The notes: generated from the sequence alone by a model not told the origin. A stretch of 32,000 nt of DNA from Candidatus Saccharimonadota bacterium (GCF_003351905.1 NZ_CP022339.1:270001-302000), one strand, 5' to 3'. Shown: positions 26,718 through 27,430, numbered from the stretch's first letter. Made by a program: numbers and translations.

Positions 26718-26900
26718 ATGGTTGCCGATAAAAAAACTTGGCGCTTCAGTAAACTGGTAGTCTTTAGACGAACGGTTGTTCAGTGGATTAGAAAAACAGT
26801 TTCCTTAGAAGCCTCCAAAGGGGACGAATTCTGTTTTTCCCACTGCACAACAGATCGTTTTATTACTTTTACTGCGTGCCAACTTTTTATCGGCGACCAT
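26718..26900 (+). repeat. B-type 183-bp palindromic module, copy B1
   Basis: ATGGTTGCCGATAAAAAAACTTGGCGC at the left pairs with GCGTGCCAACTTTTTATCGGCGACCAT at the right. The core at 26791-26840 (GAAAAACAGTTTCCTTAGAAGCCTCCAAAGGGGACGAATTCTGTTTTTCC) is homologous to the A-type core. It aligns along its full length with 27248-27430. Confidence 0.75.
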
Positions 26901-27032
26901 GAGGTAGCATGGGCAACGGCATATGCCAACGAGTCATTTTCATCTTTGTGCTAGCATAGATTGCTCGTGTCTATTTACAACATGAGTTCGTAAGGAATTT
27001 TTCCTTTTATCTTTTTCTTGATAAGAAAGTAA

Positions 27033-27197
27033 GTATCTGTTCACATTACTGGTTAATGATGAACTTTATTCCACTTTTTTCTTGATAAAAAAGTGGACAA
27101 AAAATCAAGCCCTCGGCAAAAAGTCACTGAAAGTGTCATCTTACAGGGGCGTTGTTCTTTTAACATAAAAACCAGTACGTTGAGCGTACGACAGATC
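27033..27197 (-). mobile_element. A-type element, copy A4, with most of the long hairpin deleted
   Basis: The terminal repeat is GTATCTGTTCACATTACTGGTT (27033-27054). The small hairpin is CCACTTTTTT-CTTGAT-AAAAAAGTGG (27071-27096). Then AAAAAATCAAGCCCTCGGCAAAAAGTCACTGAAAGTGTCATCTTACAGGGGCGTTGTTCTTTT joins the outer left arm directly to the outer right arm (junction near 27140). The far end is degenerate, so the right boundary is approximate. Confidence 0.5.
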
Positions 27198-27247
27198 CCT
27201 ATCATTTTAATGGGTGTTTGCTTCGCTTACGTCAATTTAAAGCGTTC

Positions 27248-27430
27248 ATGGTTGCCGATAAAAAACTTGGCGCTTCAGTAAACTGGTAATCTTTAAACGA
27301 ACGATTGTGCAGCGGATTAAAAAAACAGTTTACTTTAAAACTCACGCAGTGGGCGCTTCCTGTTTTTCCCGCTGAAACAACCGTTCGTTTCATTATTTTT
27401 ACTGTGTGCCAACTTTTTATCGGCGAACAT
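27248..27430 (+). repeat. B-type 183-bp palindromic module, copy B2
   Basis: Same length and arms as B1 (ATGGTTGCCGATAAAAAACTTGGCGC ... GTGTGCCAACTTTTTATCGGCGAACAT). The core at 27321-27369 has a changed but still pairable apical stem, CTCAC/GTGGG. It ends 35 nt from the ppdK stop codon. Confidence 0.75.

Follow-up and report, generated by a model that had tools for sequence, protein, structure and literature searches.

The DNA analyzed here, referred to below as the window, is a 32,000-nt stretch from the genome of the Cardinium insect endosymbiont of Sogatella furcifera (cSfur), in which genes for ankyrin-repeat proteins lie together with dnaA, the PPDK and MetRS genes, and other housekeeping genes. 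Its nearest relative among the other genomes is Cardinium sp. TP (cTPut), a symbiont of the mite Tyrophagus putrescentiae, with 94.6% nucleotide identity over the MetRS-PPDK interval; the Cardinium of D. farinae (Cardinium sp. DF) is more distant (PPDK, 76% identical). An 845-bp spacer separates an open reading frame at 25880-26617 from the PPDK gene. Within this spacer are two imperfect palindromes of 183 nt each, B1 (26718-26900, plus strand) and B2 (27248-27430, plus strand). When folded as DNA, B1 reaches -42.9 kcal/mol (z = -8.2) and B2 reaches -44.2 kcal/mol (z = -8.5) relative to dinucleotide shuffles, none of which (0 of 200) folded as well.

At their centers, both palindromes carry a hairpin that recurs in three further repeats of the window, which we refer to as A1, A2, and A3. 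The core motif of this hairpin, AAAAACAGTTTNCTT, is present exactly five times in the window, each time with no mismatch: at 10552, 12467, 26792, and 27321 on the plus strand and at 20802 on the minus strand. Even with two mismatches allowed, only about 1.0 occurrence would be expected, and five were reached in none of 100 shuffles. A covariance model built from 58 copies of the region recovers the same five cores and nothing else in the window, with scores of 66 to 108 bits. The first-pass annotation had described a conserved hairpin of ~50 nt common to the A repeats and the B palindromes; both searches bear this out, although the shared stretch proves to be longer, extending to ~66 nt (~56 to 66 nt) once a flanking GATT(A) bulge and a 5-bp stem are included. 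Here, we will refer to this longer stretch as the central module. It had also been proposed that the outer arms of the B palindromes are unrelated to those of A, and this holds as well, with local alignments of the arms outside the module falling within the range of shuffled sequence (P = 0.63 for the left arms and 0.33 for the right). Remote homology between the A and B arms can therefore be ruled out, as the alignment scores are no better than those of the shuffles.

Read from the outside inward, the central module opens with the 5-bp stem and the GATTA bulge; a perfect stem of 10 bp follows, then an internal loop that is asymmetric, and finally a GC apex. It lies at the exact symmetry center of both the A and the B palindromes, and it is the only internal homology between the two families, which otherwise have just their termini in common. 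The 5-bp stem differs between families in a compensatory manner, being CAGAT/ATCTG in A and CAGCG/CGCTG or CAGTG/CACTG in B. The outer 10-bp stem reads as a perfect palindrome, and the homology provided by the module is accordingly available in either relative orientation. Pairing in the two core stems reaches 96%, with the conservation of the outer stems inflated by the use of the exact core pattern to ascertain the cTPut copies, and a single pair covaries (C-G to A-U), as a block inherited by nine sequences. Cores that can be considered purely A or purely B differ at ~11 of 51 positions (~78% identical), indicating that the sharing is old and that recent transfer alone is insufficient to account for it. 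According to the first-pass annotation, the apical stem changes in sequence yet still pairs. This is accurate only in part, since a T·G and a C·A interrupt the pairing of the B1 apex (GCCTCC/GGGGAC). The CTCAC of B2 is a single C-to-T change away from the CCCAC/GTGGG apex, a variant that is common in related copies.

The A repeats have the anatomy of a discrete transposable element. Across 46 copies aligned with wide flanks, conservation sets in sharply at GTATCTGTTCA and runs for 258 bp to TGAACAGATAC, and the sequences beyond are unrelated. The ends read GTATCTGTTCA-N5-TGG... and ...CCA-N5-TGAACAGATAC, forming terminal inverted repeats (TIRs) of ~20 bp, between which lie a small hairpin, the long imperfect palindrome centered on the core, and a second hairpin. 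Of the 32 copies with intact termini, 7, A1 and A2 of the window among them, are flanked by 8-bp direct repeats identical at 7 or more positions; in 2,000 permutations such copies numbered 0.3 on average and never more than 3. The TIR motif occurs 7 times in the window (0.48 expected), and the spacing of TIR pairs is mostly 250 to 300 bp. Plasmid p_A of Cardinium sp. DF carries a diverged A copy, likewise flanked by an 8-bp target site duplication (TSD), TCAGTTTG. Taken together, the TIRs, the 8-bp TSDs, and the sharp boundaries 258 bp apart identify the A element as a MITE. Other hallmarks of this class are also present: the elements are small (258 bp for A and ~305 bp for the B-type element described below), their open reading frames are not conserved and the peptides match no protein family, and the many dispersed copies show presence/absence differences between genomes. 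Apart from the A copies, the same terminal motif is carried by a B-type copy at cTPut locus L028 and by the hybrid D copies discussed below. The fixed-length TSD of 8 bp is a feature of the A type; no TSD was seen at the B-type copies, which are nested or cut short.

Copies of the A element in the window range from intact to residual. A1 (10459-10717, plus strand; core at 10550-10600) is a complete MITE of 259 bp that scores 107.8 bits with the covariance model; its TIRs are GTATGTGTTCA... and ...TGAACAAATAC, and its TSD, AAAATTTA, is identical at 8 of 8 positions on the two sides (10451-10458 and 10718-10725). A2 (12375-12632, plus strand; core at 12465-12514) is an older MITE with decayed TIRs, flanked by the repeat TACAATGA/TAAAATGA (7 of 8 positions). 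Solo ends are also present. One, a right TIR fragment at 10852-10890 (plus strand), adjoins the 3' end of the LPG-synthase gene, and its ortholog in cTPut is complete (L045, 7077-7255). Another, a left end at 5265-5315 (minus strand) that comprises the TIR and the first hairpin (repeat family D12), adjoins the SHMT stop codon, as does the orthologous end in cTPut. Finally, a mini derivative of ~75 bp at 21563-21637 (plus strand; repeat family D7) consists of a left TIR fragment joined to a right TIR, with almost no interior.

The tips of the B palindrome are not the element boundaries, as the palindrome lies in every copy within a longer conserved unit. On the right, the palindrome is followed by a ~60-nt sequence, here the C-leader, and then by an inverted terminal repeat, GTATGTGTTCAGGCAATGGCGTCAACTTAAGG; on the left, a spacer precedes it, and in L028 this spacer ends with GTATCTGTCGTTTTAATGG. 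L028 thus represents a complete B-type element with both TIRs present. The B palindrome is therefore the interior of a second MITE, ~305 bp long, whose terminal motif (GTATCTGT..TGG) is that of A.

In most copies, the left end of the B-type element is abutted or truncated by an A element in reverse orientation, and this composite has itself multiplied. A composite repeat of ~450 bp in the window (20581-21033, with no strand assigned) is 85 to 86% identical over ~430 bp to two cTPut sequences (L013, 3550-3990, and L018, 2821-3250). It is bounded by TIR_C-type ends (GTATCTGTTCAAAAAATGGCGTCAACTTAAGG and an inverted partner) and contains A3 (about 20638-20884, minus strand; core at 20754-20804) together with a B-type remnant at 20918-20998 (plus strand; families D5 and D10), in which only the outermost B arm (ATGTCCGCCGATAAAAAAACTTGG) remains, joined to the C-leader, the palindrome and its core having been deleted.

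The 845-bp spacer next to the PPDK gene is a patchwork of two such A/B composite units. At 26640-26717 (minus strand), alignment identifies an A left-end fragment followed by the spacer that precedes B elements (families D8 and D5; inverted repeat I12). Next is B1 itself (core at 26790-26840; 73.8 bits), which combines B arms with an A-like apex, GCCTCC-AAA-GGGGAC. Its C-leader follows at 26901-26961 (plus strand; family D10), with the terminal TIR_C gone, cut off by the next insertion. At 26967-27032 (minus strand) lies an A right-end fragment comprising the TIR and the third hairpin; the same interval constitutes inverted repeat I7, which is 78% complementary to 12566-12632. This fragment is interrupted at 27033 by a further copy, indicating a nested insertion. 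The interrupting copy (27033-27198, minus strand; D4, I3, and I5, with a TIR match at 27033) is a core-less A-type MITE whose core and inner arms have been deleted between CTGTAA direct repeats. It is followed by the left end and spacer of B2 (27199-27247, plus strand), which begins CTATCATTTTAATGGGTGTTTGC... where L028 has the complete left TIR, GTATCTGTCGTTTTAATGGGCG, and by B2 (core at 27320-27369; 66 bits), whose apex is of the B type with one C-to-T change (CTCAC-GCA-GTGGG).

Among 185,579 species genomes, an exact match to the core pattern was found in 38 stretches, 37 of them in cTPut and one in a Clostridia metagenome-assembled genome, and there was no match in JGI metagenome contigs or IMG/VR. 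The cTPut sample holds ~55 distinct matches to the covariance model in 280 kb. A plasmid match to the B element was not found. Three orthologous sites were compared between cSfur and cTPut. The alignment of the two genomes ends exactly at the PPDK stop codon (27464/27465), beyond which the content is wholly different; where cSfur has B2, cTPut has a core-less A derivative, and its contig stops 258 bp beyond the PPDK gene. The B2 region is thus lineage specific. A2 is orthologous in cTPut but lacks ~215 bp there, including the core, and no A-type element is present downstream of the cTPut GAPDH gene, the position of A1 in cSfur. The family thus predates the split between cSfur and cTPut, with copies gained, lost, or rearranged since.

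Several elements are chimeric, with junctions at or within the core (L029, L003, L026, L013, and L021). In L029 (5740-5910), the outer half of a reverse-complemented A element is fused directly to the B right arm, and in L021 (3559-3747) an A-type core is followed by the B left arm and then by a B core. The nonpalindromic D elements (L003, L026, and L029, with a more diverged copy in L013) combine B-matching with A-matching sequence. From end to end they comprise TIR_C, the C-leader (~100 nt), an ATG-led stretch that equals the B right arm in reverse complement, the 3' half of the core stem, the right half of A, and its TIR.

Variation inside the core points to exchange as well. By a four-gamete comparison, all four combinations of arm and apex are present, A arms carrying either CCCCC (46 copies) or CCCAC (4 copies) and B arms carrying either CCCAC (5 to 6 copies) or CCCCC (1 copy, which is B1 of the window); the internal-loop variants TTTCC and TTCAT assort independently too. 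Given that a compensatory pair and two loop bases separate the two apex types, recurrent mutation is unlikely, and short conversion tracts between the families are the simple reading of the four combinations. The apical loop, moreover, is present in either orientation (AAA in 29 copies and TTT in 10; GCA in 4 and TGC in 1), so that it is flipped in about one-quarter of the copies, while the orientation of the asymmetric internal loop stays constant. These flips are the signature of hairpin inversion at the level of DNA, and because the loops flip, the hairpin behaves as a DNA-level structure.

We consider it probable that the core is the central hairpin of lineage-specific, nonautonomous DDE-type elements (MITEs) in cSfur and cTPut and that the halves of these elements have been swapped there by recombination. 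Under this scenario, the module would serve as a point of crossover and template switching at which halves of different elements are joined, and short conversion tracts would carry apex variants from one family to the other. Such joining and conversion would together place different shells around one core. The hairpin further resembles an intrinsic terminator, and the elements persist at the 3' ends of genes. It is from the sequences of the chimeras and apex variants that we infer recombination to be the cause of the sharing. As the ends of A and B are alike, the same putative transposase should move both. A transposase is presumed to mobilize them. No autonomous insertion sequence (IS) with matching TIRs was found in the window, in ~290 kb of cTPut, or on the two plasmids of Cardinium sp. 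DF, and TIR pairs at IS-like spacing were not seen. By TSD length, IS6, IS256, IS1595, and IS66 would be candidate families for a parental IS. The sequence examined for a parental IS amounts to this ~290 kb of cTPut plus the 32 kb of cSfur, whose genome paper counts 52 ISs. No transposase family was found among 250 clustered open reading frames of at least 120 amino acids (aa) from the cTPut loci and the window. On the sp. DF plasmids, p_A has a single TIR-motif match, which lies in its only, diverged MITE copy, whereas the 125 kb of p_B yielded just one poor match, with two mismatches.

Could the core instead be an RNA or transcription element selected in its own right, such as an intrinsic terminator, an mRNA 3'-end stabilizer, or a small RNA, with its structure kept at the RNA level to the benefit of the host or of the element? 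Several features are consistent with this. On the core strand, GCCCCCAAAGGGGGC followed by GCTTTCTGTT fits the terminator consensus of a GC stem and a T-run; it is the first-listed terminator-like site in 20000-28000 and the only one with six G-C pairs. Copies are almost always located just downstream of stop codons (upstream, 38 "in" versus 13 "away"), in 19 convergent, 18 tandem, and only 1 divergent gene contexts. The high pairing of the stems and the compensatory C-G to A-U change noted above also fit, as does the bias toward G·T rather than A·C that high-frequency inherited polymorphisms show on the core strand (24 versus 10 positions; P = 0.024). The bias is weak, and a founder effect may explain it, yet some constraint specific to one strand in master copies would still be compatible with it. 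However, a strand-specific RNA structure would predict more G·T than A·C among independent mutations, and these are balanced: family-wide mismatches in the core number 11 G·T and 11 A·C, and rare variants over the whole hairpin number 16 of each as singletons and 40 G·T versus 46 A·C at a frequency of 3 or less. In tandem contexts, 9 copies are co-oriented with the genes and 9 are anti-oriented, so that the GC stem-loop and T-run of an intrinsic terminator are present while the consistent co-directional orientation is not. The loop is flipped in about one-quarter of the copies, and derivatives that have lost the core by deletion persist at similar sites. The location at gene 3' ends would also be produced by purifying selection against insertions into promoters and genes alone. 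Rfam gave no match at the gathering threshold across the whole window, with only a chance match of 13 bits for 26600-27480 at an E value of ≤1, and no tRNA or tmRNA was found; a search of Rfam had been suggested for the core, and no family matches it. On balance, an independently selected RNA element is unlikely, although a terminator role for the core is possible judging from its consensus. The suggestion in the first-pass annotation that the U-G wobble in B2 hints at RNA-level pairing on the plus strand is not supported, given the equal numbers of rare G·T and A·C variants, the flipped loops, and the lack of orientation bias.

A second possibility concerns the origin of the sharing, namely that the ~56- to 66-nt module is itself a small mobile hairpin, resembling REP, PATE, or IS200/IS605 ends, that inserted independently into two unrelated palindromes. 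The sharply bounded A/B similarity, the unrelated arms, and the position of the module at the exact symmetry center of both families are what such insertions would leave. Nonetheless, among ~60 copies the module is never found alone or in a third, unrelated context, the partial copies being truncated A or A' elements. Nor do the core-less variants include a cleanly bounded, "empty" A or B palindrome; their junctions are heterogeneous and fall at microhomologies (CTGTAA and GAAA, for example). The repeats flanking the module are inverted rather than direct and so provide no TSD; TSDs are found at the outer TIRs instead. We regard this possibility as highly improbable.

Somewhat less improbable, though still quite doubtful, is the derivation of A and B from one ancestral palindromic element or parental IS, of which the core would be the center (for example, the terminator of the transposase gene) and the arms would have arisen by fold-back inverted duplication of the 3' part (A) or the 5' part (B), with D as a simple internal-deletion derivative. 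The layout of the D elements, in which the ATG-led reverse complement of the B right arm stands between leader and core, agrees with such an ancestry, as do the facts that both B arms read as ATG-led peptides, that pure A and B cores are just ~78% identical, which suggests old shared ancestry, and that the core-adjacent stem differs compensatorily between the families. Yet no parental IS or transposase with that N terminus was found: the ATG-led peptides of the B arms and the D element have no match in NCBIfam, and among 5.8 billion proteins they match only three small Cardinium hypothetical open reading frames, which are the repeats themselves. The reading frames are also not conserved among copies. 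Common ancestry is compatible with later recombination at the core and does not exclude it. A further reading, which we offer as speculation and consider unlikely, would make the central module a cis-acting structural device instead of passively shared DNA: a stable hairpin about which flanks are duplicated by fold-back, primed by the hairpin or by template switching, and half-elements are exchanged, so that new palindromic MITE families arise from adjacent flanks, with A derived from the 3' end of an IS, B from its 5' end, and D as a hybrid. The module might double as a portable bidirectional terminator, which, if true, would let the elements be tolerated at the 3' ends of genes.

Our preferred reading, of MITEs whose halves were exchanged at a shared central hairpin, has practical consequences. 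A/B elements fill much of the intergenic space of cSfur and cTPut, contigs break there, and the elements mark rearrangement breakpoints between these sister genomes. They are also annotated as hypothetical proteins; in GenBank, B1 is a coding sequence of 95 aa (P0209). Recognizing them would therefore improve both the annotation and the comparative genomics of Cardinium. They are of modest interest for the evolution of repeats in endosymbionts, and in the chimeras nature provides a clear case of modules being exchanged between MITE families through the central hairpin that they share.

How do these elements compare with known short repeats? Correia elements (CREE) of Neisseria are short, TIR-bounded, nonautonomous, and intergenic at high copy number, with length variants that arise by internal deletion and hairpins that can act as terminators or RNA-processing sites. 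The Cardinium elements resemble them in being short, TIR-bounded, nonautonomous, high-copy, and intergenic and in having internal-deletion length variants. CREE, however, are 100 to 155 bp long, duplicate TA, and form a single family, and we know of no description of two shells with one core among them. The pneumococcal BOX elements (boxA-boxB-boxC) and the BIMEs of Escherichia coli are built of reshuffled modules, and in the Cardinium elements, too, the same submodule appears in different combinations. Unlike BOX elements and BIMEs, which lack TIRs with 8-bp TSDs and of which the latter are REP based and linked to RAYTs, the Cardinium elements have the outer boundaries of classical DDE-type elements. 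REP/BIME repeats are 20- to 40-nt palindromes, single or clustered, that lack TIRs and TSDs and are accompanied by a RAYT gene; an identity with them was rejected on account of the TIRs and TSDs seen here and because the core is never found alone. Rickettsia palindromic elements (RPEs) and the cyanobacterial Nezha elements, found in endosymbiont or compact genomes, are nearly whole-length imperfect hairpins, much as the Cardinium elements are mostly one long imperfect hairpin in a compact endosymbiont genome. RPEs often lie in frame within genes and are without clear TIRs and TSDs, and to our knowledge a central module common to several arm families has not been reported for either RPEs or Nezha.

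Within the genus, the genome papers of cSfur, cTPut, and Cardinium sp. DF do not describe the A/B repeats, and the literature searched yielded one other Cardinium MITE family. This family, MITECca01, is a noncoding element of ~240 bp with TIRs whose many copies lie mostly between genes and often inside other mobile elements, and its authors found no copy in any other Cardinium strain (2022; PMC9769881). Its inverted repeats, ACGTGAATTCGGGATT, derive from the IS982-family element ISCca4, and an AGMTTGTW motif lies downstream (PMC9769881). Like MITECca01, the A/B elements are TIR-bounded, noncoding, multicopy, and nested elements of the same genus. Their ends (GTATCTGTTCA-N5-TGG) and 8-bp TSD are different, as are the long palindromic interior and the central module shared by two families, and the identity of A with MITECca01 can be ruled out, since ACGTGAATTCGGGATT and GTATCTGTTCA are unrelated. 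The first-pass annotation had held that a shared core in different palindromic shells fits no repeat family that can be named. That is correct insofar as Rfam has no match, but the shells themselves are the interiors of MITEs, a nameable class. The A and B elements of Cardinium apparently represent an undescribed mosaic MITE family, an ordinary kind of selfish repeat rather than a new RNA or regulatory system.

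The gene block comprising SHMT, an ankyrin protein, a 384-aa ORF, and GAPDH lies in opposite orientations in cSfur, the Cardinium endosymbiont of Sogatella furcifera (window 5265-10890), and in cTPut, its sister from Tyrophagus putrescentiae (locus L045, 7036-12375). A single old element of type A, the 258-bp MITE with a central core hairpin, is complete in cTPut (L045, 7077-7255) and is present in cSfur in two pieces, its left end (5265-5315) still adjoining SHMT and its right end (10852-10890) still adjoining the LPG-synthase gene. The splitting of this element, with each end kept beside its gene, suggests that the inversion breakpoint between cSfur and cTPut lies within the MITE.

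The extent of internal deletion that an A element may undergo is shown by a mini-element of ~75 bp (21563-21637), which comprises a left terminal inverted repeat (TIR) fragment, the right TIR, and hardly anything else. Elements of type B (the second MITE sharing the core module) and type D (the chimera of B-arm and A sequence) are found directly downstream of sequences resembling tRNA 3' ends (GGTTCGATTCC...) at L028, about 3100-3215, and L003, about 2290-2330; sites adjacent to tRNA genes may be their preferred insertion context.

These repeats also affect annotation and assembly. In GenBank the B1 palindrome is covered by a 95-aa cSfur entry labelled "hypothetical protein" (P0209; window 26658-26954), and B-type repeats of cTPut likewise carry annotated small ORFs (P0207 and P0208); all three are very likely false genes. 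The cTPut contig JAUEML010000014.1 stops within MITE sequence, 258 bp past the PPDK stop (L044, 12635-12892), and short-read assemblies are apparently broken by these repeats.

The PPDK of the window (27465-30098) has its best non-Cardinium homologues, at about 52-60% identity, in Midichloria and other Alphaproteobacteria rather than in Bacteroidota, which is consistent with horizontal acquisition. Elsewhere, an ORF at 21844-22281 (145 aa; no Pfam match) contains two tandem 66-bp units, 86% identical (22090-22221); prediction places terminator-like hairpins there, on the minus strand.

A diverged A-type copy (A') resides on plasmid p_A of Cardinium sp. DF, a distant Cardinium lineage (L039, 3887-4148; CP101109.1, about 17614-17868). 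This copy has the apex GCCCG-AGAAG-CGGGC, a longer internal loop, and an 8-bp target-site duplication, TCAGTTTG; an A' fragment resembling it is found at L004, 6508-6583. Its presence in so distant a lineage means that the A-type family is older than, or has spread beyond, the cSfur/cTPut clade, with plasmids possibly the route of this wider spread.
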